A stretch of DNA of 64,000 bases, from the NCBI GenBank assembly GCA_937997955.1, contig CALLDR010000202.1, positions 2,413 to 66,412 of the forward strand. Reading direction: 5' to 3'. Under the pieces are notes generated by a model, which had not been told where the DNA came from, did not search any database, and saw only the letters and a program-made list of their open reading frames with translations. The position numbers and the translations under genes are program-made. The DNA comes from an uncultured Emergencia sp. Its GTDB lineage: Bacteria; Bacillota; Clostridia; Peptostreptococcales; Anaerovoracaceae. Shown here in pieces: positions 11,144 through 63,577 of the stretch; position 1 is the first letter of the stretch; every line of letters begins with the position of its first letter.

Positions 11144-12760
11144 TTATTTTTGACAAACCATATTTTTGAAGTTCCAATCCCATGCCGATCCAATGCTCAT
11201 ATCGCCATAATCGTAATCGTTGCTGATAACTGCAAAGTTTCTCGTGTAATTGTAAACATAGTACGGTTCATCTTCTGTAATGATATCGCAAACCTCAAAC
11301 AGCAGGTCCATTCTCTCGGTGTTGTCTACTGTAACACTTGCTTTTGACAAGAGCTCGTCTACAGTTTTATTGCTGTAGGATGCGCAGTTATATCCGCCTG
11401 CTCCGATATTGCTCGTAGTGTACAGCGGGTACAGGTTTCCTGATGGATCTGGATAATCTGCGCCCCAAGTCGCTACCAGCATATCGTAGTCTCTGACACC
11501 GTCTTTGTCCAAGATGTTGCCAAACTGATAGGAATACAACTCATCGCTGGTTACTGATACAACTTCGACGTCAATTCCAATTTGACTCAACGACTGCTGC
11601 AGCACAAGTGCCACGTCATATCTCTGTGAATCCGCCTGGCTGACTAAAACATTGCACGAGAAGCCTTCCGGTACACTGGACTTTGCCATATACTCCTTTG
11701 CTTTCTCCAGATCATATACGTGCCCTGGCAAGCTTTCCACATATTCCTGCCATCTTTCTGGTTCCACTGTAAACAGGGAATCCGTCATTGGCAGCTGACC
11801 TCCCTTGGTTCCAGTTTCTTTTACAATATTATCACTGATCGAGTCGATATCAATTGCATAAGAAATTGCTTTTCTCACGTTTATATCATCAAAAGGCTCT
11901 CTTGCAGTGTTGAATGCGATATAGTGGATTCCCATTCCCGGATTATCGCAAACGGTCACATTGTCATAACCATGCAAAGTATCTAACAGATTCGTGGAGA
12001 AGTTCGCCGCCATATCGATCTGTCCGCTCTTCAGCGCGGTGGAAAGTGTCGTGTCGTCAGAAATAATGGAGAAGTCAATCTCATCAACATTAGTTTTAGC
12101 GCTGCTATCCCAATAATTTTCATTTTTTGTCAGCACAACTTTAGAACCAGAAGTCCAGCTTTCATATTTAAACGGACCAGTACCGATGATTCCGCCATCT
12201 GCCGAACCGAAATCCTCTCCCTTTTCCTCTGCATAGTCCTTCTTTACGATCATACCGGCCGATGTAGCCAATACATACTGCCAATTTGCGTCTGGCTGAG
12301 AAAGCTTCACGGTTACCTCATAATCGCCAGTCGCTTCGATAGATTCGACATTTTCAAAAAACCAATTCATATATGAACCCAGGTTCTCGTCCATATGCCT
12401 CTGTAAAGAATATACCACATCATCAACCGTCATATCCGACCCGTCTGAAAATTTAACATCCTGTCTAAGATGATAAACATATGTCGTAGGGTCTGCAGCT
12501 TCCCAGGATTCCGCGAGATTACACTTCAGCGCATTGTTCTCATCATGACATAGCAGGCCTTCACATATATTATCGATCACGATGCTCGTGTCATTATCAT
12601 ATGCAAATGCCGGGTCGAGACGGACAATGTCCCCTGCCAAAGCCACATTCATGACTACTTTTCCATCTCCTCCATTGTCACCGCCGCCGCAGGCAGTAAA
12701 TGCAGTTGCGATCATGAGTACAGCCAGCAATATTGCAGCATACTTTTTTGCCTTCTTCAT
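11144..12760 (-). CDS. ABC peptide/nickel-type substrate-binding lipoprotein (family 5, Opp/Dpp-like)
   Basis: The start was moved to ATG 12760, which follows AGGAGG. Lipobox LMIATAFTAC-GG. SBP_bac_5-like length and sequence. The ORF-track extension (MWHAIV...) has no RBS. Confidence 0.85.
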   Translation of the reverse strand: MKKAKKYAAILLAVLMIATAFTACGGGDNGGDGKVVMNVALAGDIVRLDPAFAYDNDTSIVIDNICEGLLCHDENNALKCNLAESWEAADPTTYVYHLRQDVKFSDGSDMTVDDVVYSLQRHMDENLGSYMNWFFENVESIEATGDYEVTVKLSQPDANWQYVLATSAGMIVKKDYAEEKGEDFGSADGGIIGTGPFKYESWTSGSKVVLTKNENYWDSSAKTNVDEIDFSIISDDTTLSTALKSGQIDMAANFSTNLLDTLHGYDNVTVCDNPGMGIHYIAFNTAREPFDDINVRKAISYAIDIDSISDNIVKETGTKGGQLPMTDSLFTVEPERWQEYVESLPGHVYDLEKAKEYMAKSSVPEGFSCNVLVSQADSQRYDVALVLQQSLSQIGIDVEVVSVTSDELYSYQFGNILDKDGVRDYDMLVATWGADYPDPSGNLYPLYTTSNIGAGGYNCASYSNKTVDELLSKASVTVDNTERMDLLFEVCDIITEDEPYYVYNYTRNFAVISNDYDYGDMSIGSAWDWNFKNMVCQK

Positions 12761-12791
12761 TGTAATTACCTCCTTGTTAATTTTATTGAAT

Positions 12792-13757
12792 TTATCTATA
12801 ACGATGGCATGCCACATAATGACCTTCCTCCACCATTACTAGCTCCGGTTCTTCCTCCCTGCAGCATTGCATGCATACTGAACATCGGGAGGCAAAACGA
12901 CATCCCTTCGGGACATCAACCGCGGTAGGAATGTCTCCTGTCAAAAGGATTCGTTTACTTCCTTCTCCCATAGGATCTATCACAGGAATAGCTGACATCA
13001 GCGCTTGAGTGTATGGATGCAGCAAGTTGCGGAACAAAATATTTGTCTTACCTGACTCAACGACACGTCCCAGATACATCACGGCCACTTCATCGCAGAT
13101 ATGCTCTACTACCGTCATATCGTGTGAAATGAACAGCATCGTCGTATGGAAGGCTTCTTTTAAATCCAGAATCAGATTCAGGATCTGCGCTTGAACAGAT
13201 ACGTCCAATGCCGAAACCGGCTCATCTGCTACTATGAATCCAGGTTTCAACAGCAACGCTCTCGCAATAGCAAGCCGCTGCAGCTGTCCTCCCGACAGCT
13301 CGTGCGGAAATCGATCCAGTTCATTTTCCGTCAAACTGATATAAGAGAGGAGCTCCTGTATTCTGTTTTCAATCTCTTCTTTTTTCATGCCATTGATCCT
13401 GCATGGCTCCCGCAGCGAATATCCAAGCTTTAACTTAGGATTAAAGCTTGAATAAGGATTCTGAAAGACCATTTGCATTTGGGAGAGCAATGGCCGCAGT
13501 TCCTTTCTGCTCTGATGGGAAATATCCTGCCCCCGAAAGAACACTTTTCCATCTGTCAAAGTCTGAAGGCGCATCATACACTTTCCTAAGGTGCTCTTTC
13601 CACAGCCCGACTCGCCTACAATACCATAGACGACGCCTTCCTTCACTTCAATTGACACGCCGTCCAGCGCTTTCAACGTTTTATTGCCTTGAAAAGGGTA
13701 ATACCTTTTTATATTTTTTGTCTCAATGCATATGTTGCTTTGTTCCTGTCTGCTCAT
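12792..13757 (-). CDS. Oligopeptide/dipeptide ABC transporter ATP-binding protein (OppF/DppF-like)
   Basis: Walker A GESGCGKST, signature LSGGQLQR, and an Opp C-terminal Cys-rich tail. ATGA overlap with the upstream gene. Confidence 0.9.
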   Translation of the reverse strand: MSRQEQSNICIETKNIKRYYPFQGNKTLKALDGVSIEVKEGVVYGIVGESGCGKSTLGKCMMRLQTLTDGKVFFRGQDISHQSRKELRPLLSQMQMVFQNPYSSFNPKLKLGYSLREPCRINGMKKEEIENRIQELLSYISLTENELDRFPHELSGGQLQRLAIARALLLKPGFIVADEPVSALDVSVQAQILNLILDLKEAFHTTMLFISHDMTVVEHICDEVAVMYLGRVVESGKTNILFRNLLHPYTQALMSAIPVIDPMGEGSKRILLTGDIPTAVDVPKGCRFASRCSVCMQCCREEEPELVMVEEGHYVACHRYR

Positions 13758-14743
13758 TTCTCCTCACACTCCTCCGCAAAATGACATGCCGCCATATGGC
13801 CGGGACCAAACTCCGACTTGCAGGAGATCAGCAGAGGCTTCTCGATACTGCAACGTTCTGCAGCAAGTTCACATCGAGGTGCAAAAGGACAACCCTCTAC
13901 CAGATCGAAAAGTTCCGGCGGATTTCCCTTGATGGTGGTCAATTTTTCTCCAGCAAAGCCGCGCTTTGGGATGCTGGCGATCAATGCCCTGCTGTAAGGA
14001 TTCATCGTATTTAAAAAGATGTCCTTTTTACTGCCCGTCTCCAATACCGTTCCAGCATACATAACTGAAACCTGATCGCAGATTTCTGACACAATTCCAA
14101 AGTTATGCGTAATCACCAGAATTGCGACGCCAAGTTCCTTCTGAAGGTCCTTAAGAAGTTCCAAAATCTGGGCCTGAATCGTCACATCCAGCGCCGTCGT
14201 CGGCTCATCTGCTATGATCAGATCCGGCTTTGCTGCGATGGCCATTGCGATTACAACCCGCTGCAGCATTCCACCCGAGAATTCAAACGGGTACTGCTCA
14301 TACCTCACCTCCGGAGGAAAGATCCCCACCTGCTCCAGTAAAGCCATGGTTTTTTGCTTAGCCGTCTTCTTGTTGTCATGAAAATGACGGATGAATACTT
14401 CGTCGATCTGCTCTCCCACAGTAAAAAGGGGATTTAATGCGGACATCGGATCCTGGAAAATCATGCTGATCTTCCTCCCTCTGATAGCCTGCATCTCCTT
14501 TTCAGAAAGCTGCAGAAGATCTCTTCCCTGAAGATTGATTTCTCCCCGCATCCGCACCAGCCGTTTATTATGCAGTCCCATCACAGCCTTAGCTGTAACG
14601 CTCTTGCCGCAGCCTGATTCGCCCACGATTCCATGAATAGAACCCTTCTCTACAGTTAAGTTTACCCCTCTTACCGCATGTATCAGTCCTCGCGTCGACA
14701 TAATATCCACGGACAGGTTCTTTATTTCTAAGAGTGCTGACAT
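13754..14743 (-). CDS. Oligopeptide/dipeptide ABC transporter ATP-binding protein (OppD/DppD-like)
   Basis: Walker A GESGCGKSV, signature FSGGMLQR, and an oligopeptide-type C-terminal domain. Confidence 0.9.
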   Translation of the reverse strand: MSALLEIKNLSVDIMSTRGLIHAVRGVNLTVEKGSIHGIVGESGCGKSVTAKAVMGLHNKRLVRMRGEINLQGRDLLQLSEKEMQAIRGRKISMIFQDPMSALNPLFTVGEQIDEVFIRHFHDNKKTAKQKTMALLEQVGIFPPEVRYEQYPFEFSGGMLQRVVIAMAIAAKPDLIIADEPTTALDVTIQAQILELLKDLQKELGVAILVITHNFGIVSEICDQVSVMYAGTVLETGSKKDIFLNTMNPYSRALIASIPKRGFAGEKLTTIKGNPPELFDLVEGCPFAPRCELAAERCSIEKPLLISCKSEFGPGHMAACHFAEECEEK

Positions 14744-15699
14744 GACTGCGACCTCCCATTCACATCTTGATTCTTCGCTTTCTGCGCTTCCAGCTTTCTA
14801 ACCCTTCTTTCGTAAGCTCTGTCATATTTCCTAAACGAAGGAAGCTTTCTCTGTCTTGGTTCCAAATACCTATATAATCCATCACTGAAAATATTGATCG
14901 CAACAACCAACAGTATGATACATAGTCCCGGCAGCAGTGCCAGTAAAGGATTCTGCATCAGATAGGATCTTCCTTCATTCAGCATATTCCCCCAATCAGC
15001 TGTAGGCGCCTGCACACCAAAACCTAAAAAGCTCATGCCCGCCAGATCCAATATCGCATAGCCAAGATTCAATGTCAGCTGTACAATCACACTCGAGACG
15101 CAATTGGGAATGATGTGTACGAACATGATTCGTATATCAGAATAGCACATGGAATGCAGCGCCTCGACATACAGCTTGTTCTTTTCTACCATTGTCAGAG
15201 AACGGACCAGTCTTGCAATTCCCGGAATATACACGATACCTAACGCGAGGATGGCATTGCTCATATTTCTTCCCAAGCCCGCAACTAATACGAAAGCCAA
15301 TAAGAGCGACGGAAAGGATAGTATAATATCGCAAATTCTCATAAAGAACGCATCCGTCTTTCCTCCATAATATCCACATACAAGGCCTACCGGTACGCCT
15401 ATGACGATGGAAAGAAAAACAATTGCCAATCCTCCAAAGATCGTCGTTCTCCCACCATAAAACAACCTCGTCAGAATATCTCGTCCTACGGAATCTGTCC
15501 CCGCAACATGTGCGCTCGTCGGTCCGCTCAGCGTAGCGCCCATATCCTGCACGTACGGATCATACGGTGAAATCAGCGGAGCGAATACACTGCAAAAAAG
15601 TATGATGCCCAATATGATAAGTGAAACAATAACGGGTATGGTAAATAAAGTACCTGTCTTCCCTTTCGATGAAAGGCTCAGTTCTTTTTTACGAAACAT
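14728..15699 (-). CDS. ABC peptide transporter permease (OppC/DppC-like)
   Basis: Multi-TM BPD_transp_1-type permease in operon context. Confidence 0.85.
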   Translation of the reverse strand: MFRKKELSLSSKGKTGTLFTIPVIVSLIILGIILFCSVFAPLISPYDPYVQDMGATLSGPTSAHVAGTDSVGRDILTRLFYGGRTTIFGGLAIVFLSIVIGVPVGLVCGYYGGKTDAFFMRICDIILSFPSLLLAFVLVAGLGRNMSNAILALGIVYIPGIARLVRSLTMVEKNKLYVEALHSMCYSDIRIMFVHIIPNCVSSVIVQLTLNLGYAILDLAGMSFLGFGVQAPTADWGNMLNEGRSYLMQNPLLALLPGLCIILLVVAINIFSDGLYRYLEPRQRKLPSFRKYDRAYERRVRKLEAQKAKNQDVNGRSQSCQHS

Positions 15700-15712
15700 A
15701 ATATTTCTCCTT

Positions 15713-16651
15713 CTATTCCAATCTGATTCTTGGATCTAATACTGCGTATAAAACATCCACCAGTAAATTACAGAGCAGGAACACCACTACCATCAGCAGT
15801 GTTAAACTCTGTATAACCGGATAGTCCGACTTGCTTATACTATCCGCTAATAAGGAGCCTACGCCGTTTAAAGAGAACACCTTTTCTACTAAGACAGATC
15901 CTCCAAGCATGCCCGCAATCTCCAGGCTTGTCACAGTCAGCACAGGTATTGCTGCGTTTTTCAGAGCGTGTTTATATACAACCTGCCACCGCTTCAAACC
16001 TTTCGCAGTTACTGTTTCAATGTAATTAGATGTCAGCTGCTCCACCATATTGCTTCGAGTAATCCTCATAATCAGTGCCATCCTGCCAAAAGCCAGCGAC
16101 ACAGCTGGCAGGATCAGGTATCGTATATTGCTGATCCAGTCGGTTCCTGTTCCAAATGTAGGAAATATCGGAATAACCATCGTAAATAACAGCATCAACA
16201 AAATACCGGTAAAGAACGACGGCGACGAAACAAGCACCAATGAAGTAACCGTTAACGTCTGATCCACCATGCTGTTCATCTTAGAGGCGCTCAGCACCCC
16301 TAACGGTATGCCGATGAATATCATCAGTATTGAGCTCATCAATACTAACTCGACAGTTATAGAAATTCTCGTACCCAGCAGTGATGCAACGGATTCTCTG
16401 AATTGATAGCTTTTCCCAAAATCGCCGTGGAACATCCCGCTGATCCAGGTCACATATTGTTCCGGCAAAGACTTGTCCAGATTATATTCCACCCTAAGAG
16501 CCGCTATCGTGTCTTCACTCATCGCTTTTCCCTTTGTGATAGATGCAATCGGATCTAACGGCGTGATCCGGACTACTAAAAAGATCAGGATCGATACGAT
16601 AAACACCGTAATAATCAGCTGCAGAATACGTTTAGAAATATATTTTGCCAT
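15713..16651 (-). CDS. ABC peptide transporter permease (OppB/DppB-like)
   Basis: N-terminus MAKYISKRILQLIITVF is typical of OppB/DppB. Six predicted TM segments. Confidence 0.85.
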   Translation of the reverse strand: MAKYISKRILQLIITVFIVSILIFLVVRITPLDPIASITKGKAMSEDTIAALRVEYNLDKSLPEQYVTWISGMFHGDFGKSYQFRESVASLLGTRISITVELVLMSSILMIFIGIPLGVLSASKMNSMVDQTLTVTSLVLVSSPSFFTGILLMLLFTMVIPIFPTFGTGTDWISNIRYLILPAVSLAFGRMALIMRITRSNMVEQLTSNYIETVTAKGLKRWQVVYKHALKNAAIPVLTVTSLEIAGMLGGSVLVEKVFSLNGVGSLLADSISKSDYPVIQSLTLLMVVVFLLCNLLVDVLYAVLDPRIRLE

Positions 16652-16678
16652 TTTGCGCCTCCCATCGCTCCTCGTTTC

Positions 16679-17527
16679 TCACAAATAAAGATCTGCATCG
16701 TCGCGGAAGATGCCCGCCAAAGTGGTCCCGTTCAAGAATGCCCGATACACTGTCAAATAGTCCGTTCCACTGTATCTGACCGTATTCTCATCCAGGCGAA
16801 TCGTTCCCGCGATACCCATAGCCATCGCAGCCTGCGCCTCTGCCGTATAGCGAACATCTAACTCAATCTGTCCATCAATTTTCATAGGTTTGATGCCATC
16901 ATCTTTATAACTTCTCAACGCTTTTTCAACTGTATTTGTTATATTCTCTGCGTTCCTCTTCGGGTGATGACAGAGCGCAGCATTATTGCTGATAGCAATC
17001 TTTGTTTCCACCGTGTAAATACCGGGAATACTCTTTTTTGCATCCTCAATGACTTGATCATCGCCAGATAAGAATACTACCGGCACGTCATATGCGCCTA
17101 TGCATAACCCCACTAAATCGTGTTCTGAAATCAGGGTTCCATTTAATCTCATTTCGACCATAGTTCCATACGCATAGCTATGACTCGCGACCCCTTTTCC
17201 CCCTTTTCTCTTGTGATATCCAATAAACAGCGCAGCATCACAGCCCAGATCACAGCCTTCAGCCATACCCAATGGGCGAATTCCACCAGAAATCAAATCG
17301 ACTCGTTCATCCAACTGGTCAATCAACAGATTATTTCCTGCATTGTGCGCATCATTTACGATAACCTGCGTTGCGCCTGCCCGATATGCACCCTCCACAG
17401 CGGCATTCACATCATTAGCCATCATCCTCTGCGCCCAAGGATACAAAGTCTGATGGCTGGGCATCACTTGTCCTAATTTATAAATACCTGAGATTCCCTC
17501 AGCATCCATTGAAATATATATTCTCAT
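16679..17527 (-). CDS. dppA: M55-family D-aminopeptidase (DppA-like)
   Basis: MRIYISMDAEGISGI matches the DppA N-terminus. The start is set at ATG 17527, which follows AGGAGG-N5. The longer ORF-track start at 17587 has no SD. Confidence 0.85.
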   Translation of the reverse strand: MRIYISMDAEGISGIYKLGQVMPSHQTLYPWAQRMMANDVNAAVEGAYRAGATQVIVNDAHNAGNNLLIDQLDERVDLISGGIRPLGMAEGCDLGCDAALFIGYHKRKGGKGVASHSYAYGTMVEMRLNGTLISEHDLVGLCIGAYDVPVVFLSGDDQVIEDAKKSIPGIYTVETKIAISNNAALCHHPKRNAENITNTVEKALRSYKDDGIKPMKIDGQIELDVRYTAEAQAAMAMGIAGTIRLDENTVRYSGTDYLTVYRAFLNGTTLAGIFRDDADLYL

Positions 17528-17586
17528 GTTTCCTCCTATTTCATCATTTACAAAAAAGTTCTTATCAGTCAATTGATCCTTTAGCA

Positions 17587-19053
17587 TTAATTCCGTTTTC
17601 GAAAAAGAATCGGGGCAACCATCGGTTCATACCGGATGCTTACGCCGTCGATATTTCCATCCTTATCATCCTGCCCATTTACGGGAACCTTCATGGTTAA
17701 AATATCTTCTTTGACACCATCCAGCCAAAATGAGGATCTGCCCCAATGATGCAGTGGAAGCGTCTGATCCCGATATTGAAGATAGAGCTGACCGTTTCTC
17801 ATTTCTATCGTTACAGTTCCATATCCCGGTTCAAAATACTCTCCAACATAGTCGCCAAACGGATGCTCCGACAGCTCCCCTTTGGCGTCATTGCTCAAGT
17901 AGCCGGTTGTCAAATCCTCTTCACAATCGTCGTATCTCTCTATCGGCGCTTCTTCCTGCTGATCCCGAAACCGCTTTTCCCAATGCGCATCTGGATATCC
18001 TAAAGCCCTGTCGAGAATTCTGTACAGCATAGTATAAAATACGGGGGTCGACGGCGAATGCAGATTCATCAAAATAGCGACGCCAATCTGATCATCCGGC
18101 AAATATACCTGCAAAGTGCTGTACCCTTCTATTTTTCCAGAATGCTTCTGAAATCTATGGCCACGATAATCACCGCATTGCCAGCCCATGCAATAGCCTT
18201 TGCCTGGATAGCAGTCTTCGGCCAGACCTGCGCTGTCTACATAATCCATCTGTTTTTCATGCATCTGCCGAAAGTTTTTTTCCGAAATAAGCACCTCGCC
18301 GGACGGTCCTTTTCCACCGTCAATATGGAAATGAAGCCATTTAGCCATATCCTTCGGCGTGCTGTTTACTGACGCTGCCGGCCCGGCTAAATCTACGTTC
18401 CAAAATGGAAGTCTGGTCAACGTACTGCCGACAAATTTATAAGGCACAGCATGATTATCATCTGACAAAATTTCCTGTGCCGTGCAGGTTGTTCTCTCCA
18501 TCTTTAAAGGAGCGAGAAGATAATTGCGAAGCAAAACATCCCAAGACTCACCCGAAACGGCTTCTGTCACATATCCTGCAAGCGCGTAAATCAGATTGCT
18601 GTACTGAGCCTTCTGACGAAACGGCAGATTTGGTTCAAGATAACGCAGCCTCTGTGCAAGTTCTTTCCTTGTAATTGAGCCAGGCCACAATGCATCGTGC
18701 CCCCCGAGACCCGTCCTGTGGCATAACATATCACGAATCGTCATTTCATCATTCGCAGTTTTATCCTTCATCATCAAATCAGGAACCATATCTTTTATCG
18801 GCTTGTCAAAACTGAGTTGATCCAGGTCAACTAGTTTGGCAACCAAAGCAGCTGTCATGGACTTTGAGCAAGACGCAATGCAGAATTGGGTATCCTCATC
18901 TACCGGTAATTTGTTTTCCACATCTCTATAGCCCAGGCATAATATCTGATCTTCCTGTCCCGGTTGGATTAACACAACTGCTAATCCTGGTATCCGCCAA
19001 TAATTCTTTTCTCTTTGAATATAATCTTTATCTAATTGAATTGATCGTACCAA
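17587..19053 (-). CDS. S12 serine hydrolase (beta-lactamase/D-aminopeptidase/DD-carboxypeptidase fold) with extra C-terminal domain
   Basis: SxxK motif CSKSMTA after IPGLAVVLI, plus a C-terminal beta-rich domain. The start is proposed at TTG 19053 (GAGAGGAG-N6-TTG), because a sigma-54 promoter lies inside the longer ORF-track version. ATG 19089 is an alternative start. Confidence 0.8.
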   Translation of the reverse strand: MVRSIQLDKDYIQREKNYWRIPGLAVVLIQPGQEDQILCLGYRDVENKLPVDEDTQFCIASCSKSMTAALVAKLVDLDQLSFDKPIKDMVPDLMMKDKTANDEMTIRDMLCHRTGLGGHDALWPGSITRKELAQRLRYLEPNLPFRQKAQYSNLIYALAGYVTEAVSGESWDVLLRNYLLAPLKMERTTCTAQEILSDDNHAVPYKFVGSTLTRLPFWNVDLAGPAASVNSTPKDMAKWLHFHIDGGKGPSGEVLISEKNFRQMHEKQMDYVDSAGLAEDCYPGKGYCMGWQCGDYRGHRFQKHSGKIEGYSTLQVYLPDDQIGVAILMNLHSPSTPVFYTMLYRILDRALGYPDAHWEKRFRDQQEEAPIERYDDCEEDLTTGYLSNDAKGELSEHPFGDYVGEYFEPGYGTVTIEMRNGQLYLQYRDQTLPLHHWGRSSFWLDGVKEDILTMKVPVNGQDDKDGNIDGVSIRYEPMVAPILFRKRN

Positions 19054-19130: not shown

Positions 19131-19287
19131 TCGTTTCGGCATTTTTCATATTTTTTCGTCATATCTGTATTCTTGAAAAATTGGCACTTTTGGCGTCAGA
19201 ATTTTTCCTCAAGCCTATTCATTTCAGACATAGGCGTCCATCAAAAGCCATTAAAAACCATTTAAAACCATTTATCTTGATTTTTCT

Positions 19288-19315
19288 TTGACCTTCATCT
19301 ATAATAAAATATATT
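19288..19315 (+). promoter_or_regulatory. Putative sigma-70 promoter of the activator gene
   Basis: TTGACC-16 nt-TATATT, about 25 nt upstream of the start codon at 19340. Confidence 0.45.
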
Positions 19316-19339
19316 TACGTAGAAAAGGCGGACACGAAA

Positions 19340-27659: not shown

Positions 27660-27660
27660 T

Positions 27661-29878: not shown

Positions 29879-29906
29879 ATTGTATAATCAGAAAGCGAGG
29901 TGGCCC

Positions 29907-32890: not shown

Positions 32891-32896
32891 CTTATA

Positions 32897-32928: not shown

Positions 32929-32953
32929 CTCTCCCAAAATATATGTCACTATA

Positions 32954-53367: not shown

Positions 53368-53384
53368 TTAAAACACCTTCCCTT

Positions 53385-54755: not shown

Positions 54756-54941
54756 GTCAAACCTCCTTAAAAATAATTTATATTCAAATTATAGTCCGCA
54801 TTACGATTAAGTCAATTTAGTTTTTTTAAAATCGTTTAAATTTTGGTAGATCACTTTACATTTCGGCTAAAATCAACTAAAATATACCATAAATATGATT
54901 TTAAATTTGCTTAATCGTTTATCAAAAGGAGAACACTATCC

Positions 54942-56222: not shown

Positions 56223-57137
56223 CTAAAAGATGCTCAGCTTCTGGCTTTTGCTCAAAGCCTCCAGCATACGGATGCCCGCTACGCTGTTTCCTTTTTTGTC
56301 CAGGGCCGGTGAATAGATGCCGATGCCCATGCGGCCCGGGCAGTCTGCCATGATGCCGCCGCCGACGCCGCTCTTTGCCGGAATACCTACCGTAGTAGCA
56401 AATTCGCCGCTGCCGTCGTACATGCCGCTGGTGGTCAGCACCGCGTTCATGAACACAGCGTCCTCTTCCGGAATCACCTGCTCGCCGGTGTGGATATTCT
56501 TTCCATGGTAGGCCAGAATCAAGGCCATTCTCGCCAGATCCTGACAGTTCACTTTGACAGAGCACATGGCGAAGTACACGTCCAGCAGTTCTTCCACGCT
56601 CCCGTAGATCATGCCGGAATTTTTCAGCAGATAAGCCAGCGCCCTGTTTTTGTTGCCGGTCTTCTTCTCGGAGGCATAGACCTCCTCGTCGATCTGCAGG
56701 CTGTCGTTTTCCGTGATCCTGCGGGTAAAATCCATCAGCCGCCGAAATCGTTCCTCGTTGTTCACGGCCTTGACCATGCCGCAGACAGCGATGGCTCCGA
56801 TGTTGACCATGGGATTGATATGTTCTTTCAGAAGCAGCGGCTCCGCGTAGTCGATGGCGTTGAACGGTTTTCCCGTCGCCTCCACGCCCACGTGGGCTTT
56901 CACGAAATCGATGCCGTTGTCCTTGGCGGCCAGCATCAGAAAGATGGTCTTGACGATGCTTTGAATGGTAAAGGTCTTCTCCCAGTCTCCCGCAGAAAAG
57001 TCCCCGTCCTTCGTCGCGACATAGATGCCGATCTCTTCCCGATTGGCTTTCGACAGCTCAGGAATGTAGCTGGCAACCTCGCCGTCAAGGGTGTGTCTCC
57101 GACAGTTTTCCAGAATTTCTTCAATGCAAGCCTGCAT
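56223..57137 (-). CDS. glsA: Glutaminase A
   Basis: 304 aa with YIPELSKA, the serine-beta-lactamase-like glutaminase fold (QSIVKT) and PAKSGVGGGI. Confidence 0.9.
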   Translation of the reverse strand: MQACIEEILENCRRHTLDGEVASYIPELSKANREEIGIYVATKDGDFSAGDWEKTFTIQSIVKTIFLMLAAKDNGIDFVKAHVGVEATGKPFNAIDYAEPLLLKEHINPMVNIGAIAVCGMVKAVNNEERFRRLMDFTRRITENDSLQIDEEVYASEKKTGNKNRALAYLLKNSGMIYGSVEELLDVYFAMCSVKVNCQDLARMALILAYHGKNIHTGEQVIPEEDAVFMNAVLTTSGMYDGSGEFATTVGIPAKSGVGGGIMADCPGRMGIGIYSPALDKKGNSVAGIRMLEALSKSQKLSIF

Positions 57138-57378
57138 AAGTCCAAGTCCGCTCCTCTCAACAATATTTCACCTCATCTAGTATACCATTGATTTTGAGAA
57201 TGTAAACCCCCAGTTTTTCTCACAGCAGGGCATACGCATGAAAAACAAGATTCCCACTCACGTAATTTAAAAGGTAAAGATCCAAACGCCACTTTTTGTT
57301 GGTTTTCAAAGTCGAAGTGGCGCCCGCCATCAAAGGACAGCCGTCAAAACGCCACGGCCATCAAAAACACGCCAACAG

Positions 57379-57409
57379 AAAAACGGGGCATACCTCGCCG
57401 CACGCCCCG
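57379..57409 (-). terminator. Putative terminator after the B3/4-domain gene
   Basis: The minus strand reads CGGGGC-14 nt-GCCCCG followed by TTTTT. Confidence 0.55.
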
Positions 57410-57429
57410 CCTCGCATTTCGATCAAAGA

Positions 57430-58134
57430 TTATTCAGCGTCGAAGACCCGGTTGTCCTTATCGATAAATCCAACCTTCGCATCTACGCCAAAGTATTTCT
57501 TAGCCAGCTCCGCCAGCTCCGCGGCAGCTTCCTCTACCTGCTCTTTGTTCAGATCGGTAAAGCCGTCGATCGGGAACAGCACATCGCTGGTCTCCTCGGT
57601 GATCTTGCCGATCTCGCTCTGTCTCCAGGTCCAGCGGCGGGTTCTCACCTCGTGGCCGGAAACGTAGACAACTTCCTTGTCCTCAGGCTTTTCCATTTCG
57701 CCGTTGCCAAACGGAATGAAGGTATCATCGGCATCTGCGTAACGAACTTCCAAGGCTTCGTCGATGGTCGCCATGTCGTGGGCGCCGATCGGCAGATGAT
57801 ATTTGATGGATACAGCATTTCCAAGGTCTACTACCGCGTTGATATGAGGAAAGCCTTTTCCCTTGGCGATACGGTCCAGCAGCGCTTCGATAGAGCACAT
57901 GTAACGGTTCGGGTTGATGCCGATGGCACGGAACGCTTCTCTGTACGGTACGATATCGTCGGCGTTCTTCACTTTGATGCCGTCAAAGTCCTTCTCGCAC
58001 TGGGTAATGTTCGCCTGCAGCATTTCTTCCAGTTCCGGGATTTCCTTGGTGTTGTCCATGCCTCTGACAGCGACGACGCCAAAGTACGCGTTTGGAAGAA
58101 GATCAAATACTTCTTTTGCGATTTCAAATTTCAT
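57430..58134 (-). CDS. B3/B4 tRNA-binding-domain protein (PheT B3/4-like, stand-alone)
   Basis: 234 aa. MKFEIAKEVFDLLPNAYFGVVAVRGMDN is typical of stand-alone B3_4 domain proteins. Confidence 0.75.
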   Translation of the reverse strand: MKFEIAKEVFDLLPNAYFGVVAVRGMDNTKEIPELEEMLQANITQCEKDFDGIKVKNADDIVPYREAFRAIGINPNRYMCSIEALLDRIAKGKGFPHINAVVDLGNAVSIKYHLPIGAHDMATIDEALEVRYADADDTFIPFGNGEMEKPEDKEVVYVSGHEVRTRRWTWRQSEIGKITEETSDVLFPIDGFTDLNKEQVEEAAAELAELAKKYFGVDAKVGFIDKDNRVFDAE

Positions 58135-58310
58135 AGGTTTGTCTCCTTTACATTTGTTTTCTGCTTTTGCCCTAATTACCTCCCGGCGAACCGTCCAGTC
58201 CCTCGCCGCAGGAGGCGGAAACCCTGTAAAGCATGTTTAGACGCCTCTTACTAACACATTATTTTACCACATAATCACACTGAAATGTAGCTTTTTTTTG
58301 CTTAGAAAAA

Positions 58311-58348
58311 GAAAAAACCCTGCAGTCCGTTCCTCGCGCTGACTGCAG
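58311..58348 (-). terminator. Rho-independent terminator of the rubredoxin gene
   Basis: The minus strand reads CTGCAGTC-13 nt-GACTGCAG followed by GGTTTTTTC. Confidence 0.75.
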
Positions 58349-58359
58349 AGTCCCATAGA

Positions 58360-58518
58360 TTAGTTTTCTTCGGAAAACATGTCTTTTCCAACGCCGCAAA
58401 GCGGGCATTCGAAATCATCTGGCAGGTCCTCAAACTTTGTGCCTGGCTTAATGCCTTTATCCGGGCAGCCTGCTGCTTCGTCATATTCCCAGCCGCAAGC
58501 GTCACATACGTATTTCAT
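58360..58518 (-). CDS. Rubredoxin (52 aa), absent from the ORF track (below the size cutoff)
   Basis: Hand translation gives [52 protein letters not shown], with CxxCG...CPxCG motifs. It has an RBS GGAAGGAGG, its own promoter and its own terminator. Confidence 0.92.
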
Positions 58519-58577: not shown

Positions 58578-58793
58578 TATGATTTGCAAAAAACTCTTAC
58601 TTGATTTTAACAGATATCGACGATGTTTTCACGATCGCGCAAATGCGGCTTCCATAGGAACGCCATAAATATAAACAGGACAAAAGCGGTTTCAGCTTTC
58701 CTGGAATTGCTTTTGTCATATTTCCTGCATCTTCCTGTCTTCTCTGAAACCGCTTCTGTCAAGGTATAAGCGTTTGTCTAAGTATGGGATTTT

Positions 58794-59720
58794 CTATCTT
58801 TCCACCTCAAATATGATTGATTTGGTTTCCGTATCCATCTTGCACACAGCGCCCATCGGCAGAGTGATCATCGGAAATCCATGACCGGACTGAACGTTGT
58901 ACATGACCGGAATATCCATATCCCCGATGGCGTCCAGCACCACGCGGGTCATGTCAAATCCCTCTTCGTCCACGTTACAGCGGGTGAACTGTCCCAGGAT
59001 AATGCCCTTCACCTGATCCAGCAGTCCGGCGTTCTTCAGCTGATATACATGTCTGTCCAGATTGCCGATGTGTTCTCCGATCTCTTCGATAAAGAGGATC
59101 TTCCCTTTGGTATCGATTTCATACGGCGTTCCCACCGACGCGCACAGCACCGTCAGATTGCCTCCGGTGATCTCACCTACAGCACAGCCCTCTCTGGCCA
59201 CGCCGATCGGAAACCCTTCCGGCGCGCAGTAGGCATAAGTCTTGTCTGCCGTCAGGCTCTCAAAAAAGCCCTGCTTTGTCTCATCGTCGAACTGATCTAC
59301 CACATTGGAAGAGATCATCGGCCCGTGAAAGGTCACTAAACCGCACTTCTGATTGAACAGAAGATGCAGGCTGGTGATATCACTGTATCCCTGGAAGATC
59401 TTCGGGTTATTTCTGACCACATCCAGGTCTATATATGGAATGATGCGATTGGCTCCATCGCCGCCTCTGATACAGAAGATGGCTTCGACCTCCGGATCCG
59501 CAAACATCCGGTTGATCCACTCGCCTCTTGCCTTCTCTTCGCCAGCCATGTAGCCGCCCTTGGATGCCGAAATATTATCCGCCTTCTTTATGCGAAAGCC
59601 CAGAGCCCTCATGGCCTTGCAGCATTGTTCCTGCCGTTCTTCCGATACGGGGGAGCTTGGGCTGACAAGGCCAATCACCGAGCCAGCCCTTAACTTTTCA
59701 GGATATTTCATGATATTCAC
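58794..59720 (-). CDS. ldcA: LD-carboxypeptidase (S66, muramoyl-tetrapeptide carboxypeptidase)
   Basis: 308 aa with LVSPSSPV, the nucleophile motif GYSDITSLH, and a C-terminal SGHGFP. Confidence 0.88.
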   Translation of the reverse strand: MNIMKYPEKLRAGSVIGLVSPSSPVSEERQEQCCKAMRALGFRIKKADNISASKGGYMAGEEKARGEWINRMFADPEVEAIFCIRGGDGANRIIPYIDLDVVRNNPKIFQGYSDITSLHLLFNQKCGLVTFHGPMISSNVVDQFDDETKQGFFESLTADKTYAYCAPEGFPIGVAREGCAVGEITGGNLTVLCASVGTPYEIDTKGKILFIEEIGEHIGNLDRHVYQLKNAGLLDQVKGIILGQFTRCNVDEEGFDMTRVVLDAIGDMDIPVMYNVQSGHGFPMITLPMGAVCKMDTETKSIIFEVER

Positions 59721-59752: not shown

Positions 59753-60292
59753 TTAATAACCCCACATAATATTGACAATTACCGCTGACATGATCAAAGA
59801 GAACAGGTCGCCAATGATGCCTGCAAACGGTGCCTGCCTTGCATTGGTGATGCCTACCGCTCCAAAGTATACAGCCAATACATAGAAAGTCGTTTCAGTG
59901 GAACCCATAGCTACAGATGCGATACGTCCGATCTGCGACTGTGTTCCATAGGTCTCCAGCAGTTCAGCCAGCATACCCTGCGCGCCGCCGCCAGACAGAG
60001 ACCGCATGATACCCATCGGCAGAACTTCGCCAGGAAGACCTACAATATGAGTAATAGGATCCAAAATAGATACCAACCAGTCCATTCCGCCGGATGCTCG
60101 GAACATACCGATGGCGCATAGCATAGCTACCAGATAAGGGATAATCATAACACCTGTGGTGAAACCCTCCTTTGCTCCTTCAGTAAAGGAACTGTATACT
60201 GGAACCTTTCTGACGAACAATGCATAAACAGCCACAACCATGACCAATACAGGAATGGCGTATAAGGAAATAAAATTTAATACCGCTGCCAA
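59753..60292 (-). CDS. spmB: Spore maturation protein B-like nucleoside-recognition (Gate) membrane protein
   Basis: 179 aa polytopic protein that directly abuts the spmA-like gene. Confidence 0.75.
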   Translation of the reverse strand: MAAVLNFISLYAIPVLVMVVAVYALFVRKVPVYSSFTEGAKEGFTTGVMIIPYLVAMLCAIGMFRASGGMDWLVSILDPITHIVGLPGEVLPMGIMRSLSGGGAQGMLAELLETYGTQSQIGRIASVAMGSTETTFYVLAVYFGAVGITNARQAPFAGIIGDLFSLIMSAVIVNIMWGY

Positions 60293-60988
60293 TTAAATCG
60301 CCTCCTTTACATCTGCTGTGCTTGGGATCAGTGGATCGTCGCCAATATATTCTTCGTTGATCTGCAAGCGGCCAGCCGCTCTGTCTTTTTCTACCAGATA
60401 GTCATACCGGAAGATCTTGATCTTACCCAGCAGTTTTGTGGAGATAATGCAGACAAGGGCCGCAACTAAAGTTGTCAAAATTACAGGGCCGACAATCTCA
60501 GCCGCGCCAGCAGTTTCAACAGCGCTTCTCGTTGCGATGATGTTGGATGGGATTATGCAGATAGATCCAGTGGAAATTGCCATAACCATACACTGATCAT
60601 CTGTTGCGATGTTCTTGGTTTTGTTCAAAGTCTGCAGCTCCTGCATAGCTTTGATACCCAACGGTGTGCAAGCGTTGCCCAAACCCAAAATACTAGCAGC
60701 CATATACATGACAATAGCAGAGTTTGCTGGATGATCCTTTGGTACATTCGGGAACATGAATCTCAGCAAAGGCGCCAAAACCTTGCTCAGCTTCTCACAG
60801 AGACCTGCGTCTTCCATAACTTTCATCAGACCACAGAAAAAAGCCATAGAGCCAATGAGCCCGATAGCCAGTTCAACGGCAGTATCTGCAAATGCGAACA
60901 AATTGTCCTGCACGTCCTGGATAGTGCCGGTAAAGATTCCGGCAAGTACTGCGACAGCAACCAGTACTACCCAGATATAATTCATCAT
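60293..60988 (-). CDS. spmA: Spore maturation protein A-like nucleoside-recognition (Gate) membrane protein
   Basis: MMNYIWVVLVAVAVLAGIFTG...GLMKVMEDAGL...GLGNACTPLGIKAM resembles B. subtilis SpmA. Confidence 0.75.
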   Translation of the reverse strand: MMNYIWVVLVAVAVLAGIFTGTIQDVQDNLFAFADTAVELAIGLIGSMAFFCGLMKVMEDAGLCEKLSKVLAPLLRFMFPNVPKDHPANSAIVMYMAASILGLGNACTPLGIKAMQELQTLNKTKNIATDDQCMVMAISTGSICIIPSNIIATRSAVETAGAAEIVGPVILTTLVAALVCIISTKLLGKIKIFRYDYLVEKDRAAGRLQINEEYIGDDPLIPSTADVKEAI

Positions 60989-61130: not shown

Positions 61131-61324
61131 AGTAAATTGGATTTAATATTTTTCATCCGATTTCATCCTTTTATTTCGTGGCTTTTTTGATGCCGTTCTC
61201 GCTATTACAAAAGTTCTGCCGCATTCATGTCAAAATGTTTCGGTTGTGCCGCCGAAAAAATTGTGCTATACTTACTTCTAAACTTATTTACCATATCCCA
61301 CTATTGAGACAGGAGTATACAAAA

Positions 61325-61927
61325 ATGAAAAAAATCCCCTATACTTTCAGCACAAAGTCCAAGCAGATCTTCTATTTTACCATCATGGCCTACTTCCTGC
61401 TGAGACTGGTCGTTATCGTTGAAATAAAGCTGTTTCGTCTGGATGGCTACGAAGTTTATCTGGGGCCGAGCCTGCTGTACTATCTCCTGATCTTTGCCGC
61501 CGTGACGTTTCTCTTCTTTGGTTACAAGCTTTTCTTCACAATGTACGACGACAAGTCCGTCACATATTATAATCAGATTACAAGAAAGTCCTATTCCATC
61601 CAGCTGTCAGACGTCCATTTCGCGCGTCTGGACACCCGCGGGATTCATCTGTATCGCGAAGCAGACCCACAGCCAGACGCTAAGGCAGATTTGTTCATTC
61701 CTTTTTTCCGTATGGGCGTTATTCGCGCGATTCCCGTCGACGGCTTTTTCCAACAGTTGATTGCTGCGCCACAGATACGAATTCAGAAGACGTTCAAGGT
61801 TCTTCCAGGATATACGAAGAAGTGGCAGTTGGTATCCATCATCTATGCATTTCTTGCAATCTGTATGCTGTTAGTCTGTATGACTCCACTATACACCGTC
61901 ATTGTCCTCTACCAAAGTCTCTCATAA
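61325..61927 (+). CDS. Hypothetical membrane protein (2 N-terminal TM, soluble domain, C-terminal TM)
   Basis: The start is set at ATG 61325, which follows AGGAG. No recognisable family. Confidence 0.6.
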   Translation: MKKIPYTFSTKSKQIFYFTIMAYFLLRLVVIVEIKLFRLDGYEVYLGPSLLYYLLIFAAVTFLFFGYKLFFTMYDDKSVTYYNQITRKSYSIQLSDVHFARLDTRGIHLYREADPQPDAKADLFIPFFRMGVIRAIPVDGFFQQLIAAPQIRIQKTFKVLPGYTKKWQLVSIIYAFLAICMLLVCMTPLYTVIVLYQSLS

Positions 61928-61985
61928 GATTTGCATGATTCTTGCATGTCTATATTCATATAGAGTATAAGGAGGGACACAATTT

Positions 61986-62450
61986 ATGAACAAGAAATTT
62001 CCAATGACGAACTACAGAGGCATGGCCTATCTTTTGATTCTGACCTGCCTTTTGTTGGGGCTGACAAGCCTGTTTTCCGTTTTTCTATTTTCCGGGCAAG
62101 GCACGCTTTGGCTCATCCCCACTGCTATTTGCTTCTTCCTCTTCATCGTTGCAATTATGGGATTTTTGACCACTATCTCTATTGGCATTGATGTAAAGGA
62201 CGGCGTAATTTGGCTTCCAGACCCGAATATGCCAAGGCGCAGTCTTCCTGTCTTTGAGCTGAATAAGCTGGCAGATGTCCACCTGGAAAATCAAGACGGG
62301 GAGATCGTTGCCACAGATGCTGAAGATTATACTGGCTGTCGTATCATTTTCACCTTAGATGACGGCGAAACCCACCAGTATTATCCAATGATTTTAAACA
62401 AGCGGCAATACAAACGGCTTCACGACGCTCTCACCGAGAGCCTGGCCTGA
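61986..62450 (+). CDS. Hypothetical membrane protein (2 TM + small soluble domain)
   Basis: RBS AAGGAGGG. Its architecture is similar to the preceding gene. Confidence 0.6.
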   Translation: MNKKFPMTNYRGMAYLLILTCLLLGLTSLFSVFLFSGQGTLWLIPTAICFFLFIVAIMGFLTTISIGIDVKDGVIWLPDPNMPRRSLPVFELNKLADVHLENQDGEIVATDAEDYTGCRIIFTLDDGETHQYYPMILNKRQYKRLHDALTESLA

Positions 62451-62548: not shown

Positions 62549-62570
62549 ACATGTTTAATATGCCTGTATC

Positions 62571-63521
62571 CTATTTCCCAAACACGTCTTTCATCACGCG
62601 AAGGGCGTTCTGGCTGCAGATCTTGTCGATCTCATCATCGGTGAAAACGCCTTCCATCTTCTCCAGAATTTTGATGTAGCCTTCGTAATTCTCGATCTCC
62701 CCTGCGTCGTCGATGCCGTCAAAATCAGAGCCCAGACCGACGCTCTCAATGCCTGCTTTGCTTACCATATACTGCATATGTTGGATCACCTGGTCGATCT
62801 CCGCGTACTCCGAGTCCTCCTTCAGGAAAAACGGCGCAAAATTGACGCCGACCATACCGCCTTTGTTGCCCAAGGTCTGCAGCTGATGGTCCGTCAGGTT
62901 TCTGCGGTGATTGCACAGGGCTCTCGCGCAGGAATGGCTCGCCACAAAAGGCGTTTTGCTGTGCTGTGCCACGTCGTAAAAGCCTCCCTCGGACAGATGG
63001 GAAACGTCGACGATCATGCCCAGCTGGTTCATCAGCTCTACAGCCTCGATGCCCATGGGCTTCAGTCCCCGGTTGTGTTCCTGGCGGATATCGCTGGACG
63101 GATAACCCAGCGAATTCTCAAAATTCCAGAGCAGGGTGATCAGTCTGACCCCTTTGTCATAGACCTCCTGGATACGCTCGATGTGGTCCTCTACGAACAC
63201 GCCGTCCTCGATGGTCAGGATAGAGGATATCCTGCCCTCCGCCTGATTCTTCATCACGTCCTCACAGCAATACGCCGGCCGGACGATATCAGAATTCTGC
63301 TCCATCTGCTTCAGATACAGCTGGTACATCTCCTCAAACAGGCTGTACGGCCCGTTTTCTTCGATTTCCGGACGCATCAGATAGATGGCGAAGAACTGGG
63401 CGAGAGCCCCGGCCTTCTGCATCATCTGCAGGTTCAGATGGCCTTTTCTGTCCAAAAGATTCTCTTCCCGGTTGTAATAATGACTCATGATCGTGTCACA
63501 GTGCATATCGATAATTTTCAT
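62571..63521 (-). CDS. M19-family membrane (renal-type) dipeptidase
   Basis: MKIIDMHCDT (HxD metal site), VDVSH and GLGSDFDG motifs; 316 aa. Confidence 0.9.
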   Translation of the reverse strand: MKIIDMHCDTIMSHYYNREENLLDRKGHLNLQMMQKAGALAQFFAIYLMRPEIEENGPYSLFEEMYQLYLKQMEQNSDIVRPAYCCEDVMKNQAEGRISSILTIEDGVFVEDHIERIQEVYDKGVRLITLLWNFENSLGYPSSDIRQEHNRGLKPMGIEAVELMNQLGMIVDVSHLSEGGFYDVAQHSKTPFVASHSCARALCNHRRNLTDHQLQTLGNKGGMVGVNFAPFFLKEDSEYAEIDQVIQHMQYMVSKAGIESVGLGSDFDGIDDAGEIENYEGYIKILEKMEGVFTDDEIDKICSQNALRVMKDVFGK

Positions 63522-63561
63522 GGTTTTGCTCCTCTCGTCTGTCGTTTACAAAGAAAATATA

Positions 63562-63577
63562 TGCAAATCTCGTGCCA
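63562..63577 (-). promoter_or_regulatory. Sigma-54 (-24/-12) promoter P3, exact consensus
   Basis: The minus strand reads TGGCAC-gagat-TTGCA. The -12 GC is about 42 nt upstream of the dipeptidase ATG, which has the RBS GAGAGGAG. Confidence 0.72.

Follow-up and report, generated by a model that had tools for sequence, protein, structure and literature searches.

The question raised by this locus is whether three transcription units, each preceded by a promoter of the sigma-54 type, together form a system for feeding on peptides that contain D-amino acids. The locus lies in a stretch of 64,000 nucleotides (the window throughout) of contig CALLDR010000202.1 from an uncultured Emergencia sp., a Senimuribacter-like gut anaerobe in the family Anaerovoracaceae, and the units, which follow the promoters P1, P2 and P3, encode several peptidase families and a peptide importer. 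The gut is rich in peptidoglycan fragments, and stem peptides of the diaminopimelate (DAP) type are ligands of host innate receptors; little has been established about the anaerobes that consume them or about the regulation of this consumption. The evidence gathered here suggests that the three units probably, though with appreciable room for doubt, encode jointly the uptake and the stepwise cytoplasmic hydrolysis of D-amino-acid peptides derived from peptidoglycan.

The starting point is the promoters, three of which had been claimed in an earlier note on this DNA. A search of both strands of the window with TGGCAY-N5-TTGC returned exactly three matches, all intergenic, against 0.39 ± 0.60 expected from shuffled sequences, and none of 100 shuffles reached three; the stricter pattern TGGCAC-N5-TTGCW gave two matches against 0.07 expected. 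By allowing two mismatches, 34 sites were found against 34.5 expected, showing no enrichment and no additional credible sigma-54 site in the window. Each promoter lies on the strand of the gene downstream, which is the minus strand for all three. P1 (TGGCATGGAATTTGCG, 19130-19115) precedes an S12-M55-Dpp operon, P2 (TGGCACAAAAATTGCA, 61064-61049) an operon encoding SpmA/SpmB-like proteins and an S66 peptidase, and P3 (TGGCACGAGATTTGCA, 63577-63562) a monocistronic M19 gene. The -12 element stands 62 nt from the start codon of the S12 gene, 61 nt from that of the SpmA-like gene and 41 nt from that of the M19 gene, and each of these start codons is served by a Shine-Dalgarno sequence. Although the longest open reading frame (ORF) call for S12, with an ATG at 19149, encloses P1, the conserved start is a TTG at 19053, and the start was placed there because the resulting 488 amino acids match the orthologues. 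An Rfam scan of the window gave zero hits, so no riboswitch or leader accounts for the promoter regions.

The genes co-occur with these promoters beyond the window, the -24/-12 sites being kept at orthologous genes in other genomes (loci denoted here by L numbers). The P1 element recurs before orthologous S12 genes in L071-L074, L076, L096 and L097, and before an operon for a substrate-binding protein (SBP) and Opp transporter in L075. For P2, a -24/-12 site stands 65-82 nt before the SpmA ATG in all seven orthologue loci with upstream DNA (L077, L078, L080-L084; SpmA identity 76-56%), and a site of this type is also present in L091, L093 and L095. P3-type sites precede the M19 orthologues of L090 (84% identity), L091 (63%), L093 and L095.

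Other candidate sites in the window were set aside. The sequence TTGCATGATTCTTGCA at 61931-61946 (plus strand) was rejected as a fourth sigma-54 site, the GG being missing, and may be a sigma-70 -35 box. At these window coordinates, and again in the 58%-related L083 (~5760-5790, minus strand), TTGCATGATTCTTGC stands before small membrane-protein genes, and the L083 copy fits a sigma-70 promoter (TTGCAT-17-TATAAT) better than a GG-broken sigma-54 site. Upstream of spoIIE, TGGCAGTATATATGCA at 23797-23782 was treated as a chance match.

Only one sigma-54 activator is encoded in the window, as had been noted before and as tblastn finds. This bacterial enhancer-binding protein (EBP) of 678 amino acids (19340-21376, plus strand; Sigma54_activat, PF00158, 1.5e-66), called here the 19340 activator, is divergent from unit 1. 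Its translation contains GESGTGKE, FLDEIG and the GSFTGA loop, the last being an accepted loop variant (PMC6615313). The protein is composed of an unclassified alpha/beta N-domain (residues 1-200), a PAS-like domain (~230-311), the AAA+ domain and a C-terminal winged helix. No HTH_8 was found in it with Pfam; the C-terminus, scanned alone, matches the winged-helix family HTH_12 with 23.3 bits against a cut-off of 21.4. The C-terminus of EBPs is usually a Fis-type HTH_8, and the combination of a winged helix with an N-domain that belongs to no Pfam family makes the protein, judging from its sequence, a variant EBP architecture. Its structural matches include FleQ, FlrC, NtrC1 and ZraR (1ojl) with E values of ~1e-20, the AAA+ domain dominating the fold search with the full model. 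A fold search with the N-domain, modelled by AlphaFold with a pLDDT of 90, found nothing beyond a weak resemblance to LacI and periplasmic-binding folds (best E 2.6e-3, TM no higher than 0.41); this two-lobed domain is likely a ligand sensor, its class being tentative. The best NCBIfam match is PrdR (NF041552), with 319 bits against a cut-off of 795 and residues 219-601 only aligned. An exact look-up of its translation found no entry, a near-identical protein being present in the collection searched. Many full-length homologues occur in Anaerovoracaceae and allies, and a genome-collection scan with the activator returned one close relative (a Senimuribacter metagenome-assembled genome, MAG, 98%), the rest being generic AAA+ matches.

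The binding sites of this activator can be proposed with some precision at P1. Four tandem AAATGG-type repeats spaced by 10-11 bp (ATAAATGGTTTTAAATGGTTTTTAATGGCTTTTGATGG, 19234-19275, minus strand) sit 105-145 bp upstream of the -24 element as the P1 enhancer. By using a direct-repeat dimer position weight matrix (PWM) trained solely on activator-adjacent promoters, this enhancer scores 30.4, above all AT-rich background windows (maximum 29.3, which comes from unmasked S12 sites of L073/L074), and equivalent repeats are found in L071, L072, L075 and L096. The enhancer of this activator family (family B) can thus be written as tandem AAAYGGWTTT repeats with 10-11 bp spacing, for example TAAACGGCTATAAACGGTTTTAAATGGTTTT in L096 and TAAATGGTTTTAAATGGATTT in L071, the cores being inverted at two other L071 promoters. 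As a tandem direct repeat it is unlike the TGT-N10-12-ACA dyad that many clostridial EBPs use (PMC6615313). Two sigma-70-like promoters of the activator gene (19277-19315, plus strand; TTGATT-17-TATAAT and TTGACC-16-TATATT) abut the P1 repeats, and the activator could therefore autoregulate its own gene. Another direct repeat, TATTTGGCTTTATTTGGCTTT at 24439-24459 (minus strand), reaches a dimer score of 15.0 with no sigma-54 promoter nearby and is either a chance match or a site with another role.

The association of this activator with peptide utilisation genes is constant. Its orthologues (83-55% identity) invariably face away from an S12 gene, a peptide ABC operon or both, every one of which has a -24/-12 site, and always flank S12, M55, S58 or peptide-ABC genes. 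Three sigma-54 sites are present in L071-L074, before S12, a gene for a 197-amino-acid protein and an SBP-Opp operon; L075 (SBP-Opp-Amidohydro_3) and L076 (S12-SBP-Opp) have one site each beside the activator gene, and L096 has a site upstream of S12. In the complete genome of Aminipila butyrica (L097; CP048649.1, 2306248-2328275; the region concerned has locus coordinates 10001-17122), a family-B activator flanks S12, and a divergent pair of sigma-54 sites, 13570-13555 (minus) and 13804-13819 (plus), serves S12 on one side and AA_permease-S58 (DmpA-type)-M55 on the other, with AAAGGATT repeats lying between them. A relative of the module, combining S12, S58 and M55 with two sigma-54 sites and an activator of family B, is thus available in a complete genome, so that this part of the proposal could be tested directly in A. 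butyrica.

The gene calls made behind the promoters in the earlier note are all borne out by Pfam. For unit 1, Pfam confirms the S12 hydrolase, the DppA-type M55 D-aminopeptidase and the peptide importer, all on the minus strand. The S12 serine hydrolase (17587-19053; PF00144, 1.8e-55) has the penicillin-binding/beta-lactamase fold followed by DUF3471, and its translation shows the motifs SxxK (SCSK), YSN and HSG. Its nearest solved relatives are Pab87 (2qmi, the best match), D-amino acid amidase, alkaline D-peptidase and ClbP, and every NCBIfam match falls far under its cut-off. The M55 protein (16679-17587; PF04951, 1.2e-82, positions 1-262 of 264) matches the structure of B. subtilis DppA (1hi9) at 1.2e-42 and scores 200 bits with the NCBIfam DppA model, whose cut-off is 430. 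The importer (11144-16651), identified from translations and Pfam, comprises two ABC permeases (15713-16651 and 14728-15699), two ABC ATPases (13754-14743 and 12792-13757) and a family-5 lipoprotein SBP (11144-12817; SBP_bac_5, 2e-95), whose PDB relatives are peptide-binding proteins including DppE. Because the S12 protein has no signal peptide, the M55 protein resembles cytoplasmic DppA and the SBP has a lipobox, hydrolysis would be expected to take place in the cytoplasm, after import.

Unit 2, also on the minus strand, begins with two membrane proteins of SpmA/SpmB-like architecture (60293-60988 and 59753-60292), in each of which Pfam finds a Gate domain. No NCBIfam model matches the SpmA-like protein. 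The pair is always followed by an S66 gene in relatives and is a putative transporter of the substrate or the product. The S66 peptidase itself (58794-59720; LD-carboxypeptidase family, ~305 amino acids) is covered over its full length by PF02016 (1.8e-39) and PF17676 (1.2e-35). Residues 14-302 align with positions 5-296 of the 308 of the NCBIfam muramoyltetrapeptide carboxypeptidase model NF008424, at 151 bits against a cut-off of 378. A hairpin with a 17-bp stem (58679-58717, minus strand) stands 3' of the S66 gene and probably ends the P2 transcript; downstream of it a rubredoxin gene (~58360-58518) has its own strong sigma-70-like promoter (58577-58550), and unit 2 therefore probably stops after S66. 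Genes for rubredoxin, a stand-alone B3_4-domain protein and glutaminase (56223-58518) come in the same order after S66 in the window and in L090, and are placed outside the sigma-54 unit because of the rubredoxin promoter and the terminator. On the other side of P2, two small membrane proteins of unknown family are encoded divergently (61325-61927, 200 amino acids; 61986-62450, 154 amino acids; plus strand). They are conserved companions of the cluster, and the M15 gene that lies between them in relatives is absent in the window. A G9 run is also found upstream of P2 (61122-61130).

Unit 3 consists of a single gene for a cytoplasmic dipeptidase of the renal-dipeptidase family M19 (62571-63521, minus strand), with a full-length Pfam match (PF01244, 8.7e-88, positions 6-318 of 319), as had been stated; the D-preference ascribed to it would hold at the level of the family. 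Related structures in the PDB include the Listeria proteins 3neh and 3lu2 as well as Sco3058 (3id7, 1.6e-32). Sco3058 has a preference for a C-terminal D-residue, which at ~1e-32 is not transferable by sequence to the window M19. Between P3 and a conserved AT-rich upstream block lies a G-rich stretch of ~110 nt (63578-63700, minus strand), with quadruplex-like G3-5 tracts (GGGAGCAGGGGCGGGGGCAGAGGGG) and with two copies of a GATCCTGG(G/C)GCGGC repeat separated by 21 bp. These repeats were rejected as a P3 enhancer: the stretch is the only part that varies among strains of the same species (substitutions and a 12-bp indel), and it is missing from L090, the locus of the 84% orthologue, where the intergenic region has only 128 bp.

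What binds the three units together is their arrangement elsewhere. The families found under P1, P2 and P3 are repeatedly fused into common operons in other genomes. In L083/L084, a sigma-54 promoter is followed by SpmA-SpmB-S66-DAP decarboxylase (LysA)-M19 as one operon, with a small membrane protein, an M15 D-Ala-D-Ala dipeptidase, M20 and alanine racemase (Alr) on the divergent side and an activator gene adjacent. In L093/L094, the activator gene is followed by M19, M15 is divergent, and SpmA-SpmB-S66-LysA-M55 form one operon. Three sigma-54 units occur in L091/L092, namely SpmA-SpmB-S66 (then an activator gene), M19-M55, and alanine racemase; LysA-DapF, which diverges from the racemase gene, yielded no sigma-54 site. 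An Anaerovoracaceae MAG (L095) has activator-DapF-LysA, Alr-M20, M19-MFS and M15, and also SpmA-SpmB-S66 followed by a class-A-like beta-lactamase, M55, PALP and SDF. M19 adjoins S66 in L090, each with its own sigma-54 site, and rubredoxin-B3_4-glutaminase follow as in the window. With M15, Alr, DAP decarboxylase and DAP epimerase (DapF) as neighbours, the substrate indicated is therefore the stem peptide L-Ala-gamma-D-Glu-mDAP-D-Ala-D-Ala and not generic peptides. The window itself, where importer, LD-carboxypeptidase and peptide-splitting enzymes are co-located (more fully so in L083, L091, L093 and L095), reads as a reduced and split version of an island that is contiguous in relatives, with M55 shifted into the S12-Dpp operon. 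The idea of the earlier note that the units import a stem peptide and break it down stepwise thereby gains strong comparative support, since the units re-assort with each other across genomes, in the company of M15, Alr and DAP enzymes.

Several observations weigh against this reading, some of them concerning the enzymes and others the control of their genes. Regarding the enzymes, the window has no M15, Alr, LysA, DapF or gamma-D-Glu-DAP endopeptidase gene, leaving the pathway incomplete as encoded, and neither the scanned window ORFs nor the called genes of related loci include an NlpC/P60, M14 or enolase-superfamily gene; M19 and M20 are candidates for the endopeptidase and epimerase steps. 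None of the window enzymes reaches an NCBIfam equivalog cut-off, and their assignments therefore stand at the family level. The same result could be taken to mean that the units scavenge oligopeptides and amino acids at large, favouring neither D-residues nor peptidoglycan, and that the family names mislead. Some members of the S12, M19 and S66 families do have other substrates, among them esterases, beta-lactamases, MccF and GliJ; glutathione, haem or ordinary peptides are the ligands of the solved proteins closest to the SBP; and sigma-54 regulons for ordinary peptide degradation have been predicted in Clostridiales (XcyR, YpdR; PMC6615313). However, the only thing shared by M15, alanine racemase, DAP decarboxylase, DAP epimerase and S58 DmpA-type enzymes, which recur in these clusters, is the stem peptide, and general scavenging is regarded as unlikely.

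The S66 protein poses a similar difficulty. The earlier note had named it LdcA, behind an SpmA/SpmB-like pair, and while the Gate and S66 domains stand, the protein is nearer to solved MccF proteins (2e-42, in two stretches) than to LdcA structures (3e-30 to 3e-24; 6uuk at 3e-30, in one stretch). An MccF-like immunity against peptidyl-nucleotide antibiotics could thus be imagined for unit 2, or else a part in cell-wall maturation such as that of the spore cortex, neither of them catabolic; the organism encodes SpoIIE, and two Gate-domain genes beside a peptidoglycan carboxypeptidase recall dacB-spmA-spmB of B. subtilis. Yet the ~305-amino-acid protein aligns end to end with LdcA models, whereas the MccF proteins, of 336-371 amino acids, align in two stretches. 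P2 is of the sigma-54 and not of the sporulation-sigma type, and in relatives the operon is fused or adjacent to genes for DAP decarboxylase, M19, M55, M15 and alanine racemase. Together these points make a non-catabolic unit 2 very improbable.

Regarding control, no rpoN is found in the 64 kb window, and sigma-54 itself is thus presumed for this genome. Neither of the two enhancer types considered here occurs within 190 bp of P3 or of any other M19 promoter compared. At P2, a single half-site PWM of the P1 type did not separate the promoter from other AT-rich intergenic DNA, as several unrelated stretches (37.0-37.2 kb, 54.7-54.8 kb) score higher; it was replaced by the dimer model, with 10-11 bp spacing and an AT-rich background. 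With this model the candidate P2 enhancer (AAAAGGATGAAATCGGATGAAAAATATTAAATCCAATTT, 61134-61173, minus strand), which contains two direct GGATGAAA elements 11 bp apart and one inverted AAATTGGATTT and lies 65-108 bp upstream of the -24 element, scores 10.8, a value equalled by 5.9% of AT-rich background windows, and it is one of eight non-P1 loci scoring at least 10 in the 64 kb. In most lineages, moreover, the SpmAB-LdcA-M19 cluster adjoins an activator of another family (family A), not the 19340 family; it follows that activators have apparently been exchanged, and that a paralogue outside the window is quite possible.

Family A consists of HTH_8 proteins of ~620 amino acids, those of L083, L093 and L095 being mutually 46-51% identical over their full length. 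It shares only the AAA+ domain with family B, the N-domains being different. At SpmA promoters, family A is accompanied by TCC-N8-GGA dyads that come in pairs, one at about -97 and the other at about -118, with a spacing of exactly 21 bp; the background is 0.06 per 180 bp. The pairs were found in five of the six HTH_8-linked SpmA loci (L083:5818-5852 and L093:13134-13168, and also L081, L082 and L084), and L095 has one exact match (L095:14933-14946). Single similar dyads are seen elsewhere in the clusters, at L083:4358, L093:10740 and L095:5264. No TCC-N8-GGA dyads occur at the window P2 or in the clade of L077, L078, L090 and L091, and an HTH_8 activator was rejected for P2 and P3 as no such dyads lie near either promoter. 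The activator encoded after S66 in L091 is in turn a full-length family-B homologue, with 43% identity to the 19340 activator over 671 amino acids. In the dimer PWM, the SpmA/LdcA promoters of the window clade score 8.4-15.3, with background fractions of 0.059 (the window P2), 0.014, 0.12, 0.045 and 0.0095, and taken together stand above background (Fisher combined p = 2e-4), while promoters linked to family A remain at background (Fisher p = 0.43). The same operon thus appears, from these sequence patterns, to have been wired to two unrelated enhancer-binding proteins by an activator swap.

These data also bear on a different arrangement, in which the promoters are real and the cell-wall theme may hold but the activator regulons are separate: the 19340 activator would control S12-M55-Dpp only, and P2 and P3 would obey one or two other activators encoded outside the window, perhaps responding to other signals. 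Activator genes normally adjoin their targets, and P2 and P3 lie 40 kb from 19340. The SpmAB-LdcA unit of L091 encloses its own distinct family-B member, L083, L093 and L095 have the HTH_8 orthogroup adjacent, and the thousands of 19340-family homologues make paralogues within one genome plausible. No long enhancer word is identical between P1 and P2, repeats of the P1 type are missing at P3, and a comparison of k-mers among the three upstream regions of the window was discarded after giving no meaningful common word of at least 9 nt. On the other hand, P2, devoid of HTH_8-type dyads, has GGAT/AAAYGG repeats as at the targets of 19340 orthologues, such as TTGGATGAAAAAG in the SBP enhancer of L071; no activator gene was found near the M19, SpmAB and LdcA genes in the window species or in the 84% relative L090; and M55, elsewhere a companion of M19 or LdcA, is now in an operon controlled by 19340. 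Separate regulons, the serious rival to the preferred reading, are seen as possible but on balance improbable. Because its repeats are of the same class as those of P1, the probable driver of P2 is the 19340 activator or else a close paralogue whose gene lies beyond the window. Of the single dedicated regulon first proposed, then, P2 is linked to the 19340 family at a borderline level, P3 has no enhancer motif of either type within 190 bp, and one activator may or may not serve all three promoters.

Under the preferred reading, that of joint uptake and hydrolysis, the system would work as follows. The lipoprotein SBP would capture stem peptides or other D-residue peptides for entry through the ABC system, and a related compound may be taken up or exported by the Gate-domain pair. 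The 19340 activator, sensing its ligand presumably through the N-domain, would assemble on the AAAYGGWTTT repeats and, by using ATP in its AAA+ domain, open the sigma-54 promoter complexes, thus switching on unit 1. In the cytoplasm, the D-peptidase/DD-carboxypeptidase-like S12 enzyme and M55 would take off D-Ala or D-residues at the N-terminus, the tetrapeptide would lose its terminal D-Ala to S66, and M19 would split L-Xaa-D-Xaa dipeptides, e.g., L-Ala-D-Glu. Racemase and DAP enzymes encoded elsewhere could then pass the products into fermentation. Of all this, the promoters with their conservation, the gene families and the linkage across genomes are observed, while the substrates, the stereospecificity, the inducer and the identity of the activator at P2 and P3 are inferred.

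The order of the enzymatic steps has precedents. In E. coli and B. subtilis it is established that LdcA/YkfA acts first and that cleavage of a dipeptide comes next (PMC2954226). In its pathway logic the system is similar to dppABCDE-ykfABCD of B. subtilis, whose DppA is matched by the window M55, and to the LdcA/MpaA/YcjG/PepD branch of E. coli. It differs in that no YkfB/YcjG epimerase and no YkfC/MpaA endopeptidase are seen, M19 (and M20 in relatives) being the presumed replacement, and in that S12, S58, M15 and Gate-domain proteins are additional here or in relatives. The B. subtilis dpp-ykf genes are under sigma-A control of the CodY/AbrB type, in contrast to the sigma-54 and enhancer-binding protein that govern the genes described here. 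Another precedent is ddpXABCDF of E. coli, in which a VanX-family M15 enzyme is tied to peptide uptake; it uses cell-wall D-Ala-D-Ala as a nutrient and is regulated by the stationary-phase sigma S, not by sigma-54, and M15 is present in the related L083, L093 and L095 and absent in the window. The dacB-spmA-spmB genes of B. subtilis, as in unit 2, have a Gate-domain pair beside a peptidoglycan carboxypeptidase; in unit 2, however, the carboxypeptidase is of the S66 LD-type and not of the S11 DD-type, the promoter is of the sigma-54 type and the neighbours in relatives are catabolic enzymes.

On the regulatory side, the window resembles the sigma-54/EBP regulons of Clostridiales such as PrdR, OrdR, XcyR and YpdR, in which a one-component activator gene stands beside a catabolic operon. 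In the regulons of Nie et al. (2019; PMC6615313) an amino-acid or peptide operon has a promoter of the form TTGGCAT-N5-TTGCT and, upstream of it, an enhancer, and none of the 39 regulons listed there contains S12, M55, S66, M19, M15, Alr, LysA or DapF. Francke et al. (2011; PMC3162934) tie sigma-54 to cell-envelope precursors in general terms only. Targeted literature searches found no described sigma-54 system for muropeptides or D-peptides, in agreement with what had been supposed. The system is judged to belong to known kinds, namely catabolic operons under sigma-54/EBP control and clusters for the salvage of peptidoglycan peptides, and not to be a new kind of system.

A broader proposal can be put forward tentatively, as something that may well prove wrong as a whole. 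Anaerovoracaceae and allies, which are asaccharolytic gut Clostridia, would possess a dedicated and widely conserved sigma-54 island for feeding on exogenous DAP-type stem peptides, comprising uptake, LD-carboxypeptidase, D-Ala-D-Ala and L-Xaa-D-Xaa dipeptidases, D-aminopeptidases, alanine racemase and DAP decarboxylase. Two activator families that are not homologous, each with its own type of enhancer, would have been connected to this island. One of these families would sense a cell-wall-derived D-peptide or D-amino acid directly through a Venus-flytrap-like N-domain, and the 19340 activator would have taken over all three split units in the Senimuribacter lineage. Such bacteria would act as sinks for NOD1/NOD2-active muropeptide fragments in the gut.

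If the proposed function is true, the combination of a sigma-54 promoter with S66, M19 and M55, optionally accompanied by M15, Alr, LysA, DapF and S12, would provide a compact genetic marker of stem-peptide/D-peptide catabolism in amino-acid-fermenting Clostridia. Physiological roles would be given to poorly understood Firmicutes families, namely M19, S12 with DUF3471 and the SpmAB-like Gate-domain pairs. The sigma-54 repertoire would also gain a new target class, together with a natural rewiring of one operon between unrelated enhancer-binding proteins.

Other genes of the window lie outside the three units. Glutaminase, an aminotransferase and IorAB had also been noted in the window; they are present but have no -24/-12 site there (aminotransferase and IorAB genes at 24716-25903 and 27081-29469), and do not belong to the sigma-54 set. 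In other Clostridia, a sigma-54 (ZypR) regulon has been predicted for tyrB-iorAB (PMC6615313). The gene that diverges from iorA encodes a GntR/FCD regulator (29880-30563). At 53385-54755, a third membrane protein with a Gate domain, of 456 amino acids, is encoded beside a fused Oxidored_FMN/Pyr_redox enzyme (51325-53367), and the same block includes a divergent gene for an ArsR-type regulator of 370 amino acids (54942-56054). This block (51325-56054) is absent from the syntenic L090, which passes straight from glutaminase to hydrogenase-like genes. Finally, an IS200-like (Y1_Tnp) transposase ORF (32425-33078, minus strand) overlaps the 3' end of an ORF of ABC-transporter size.

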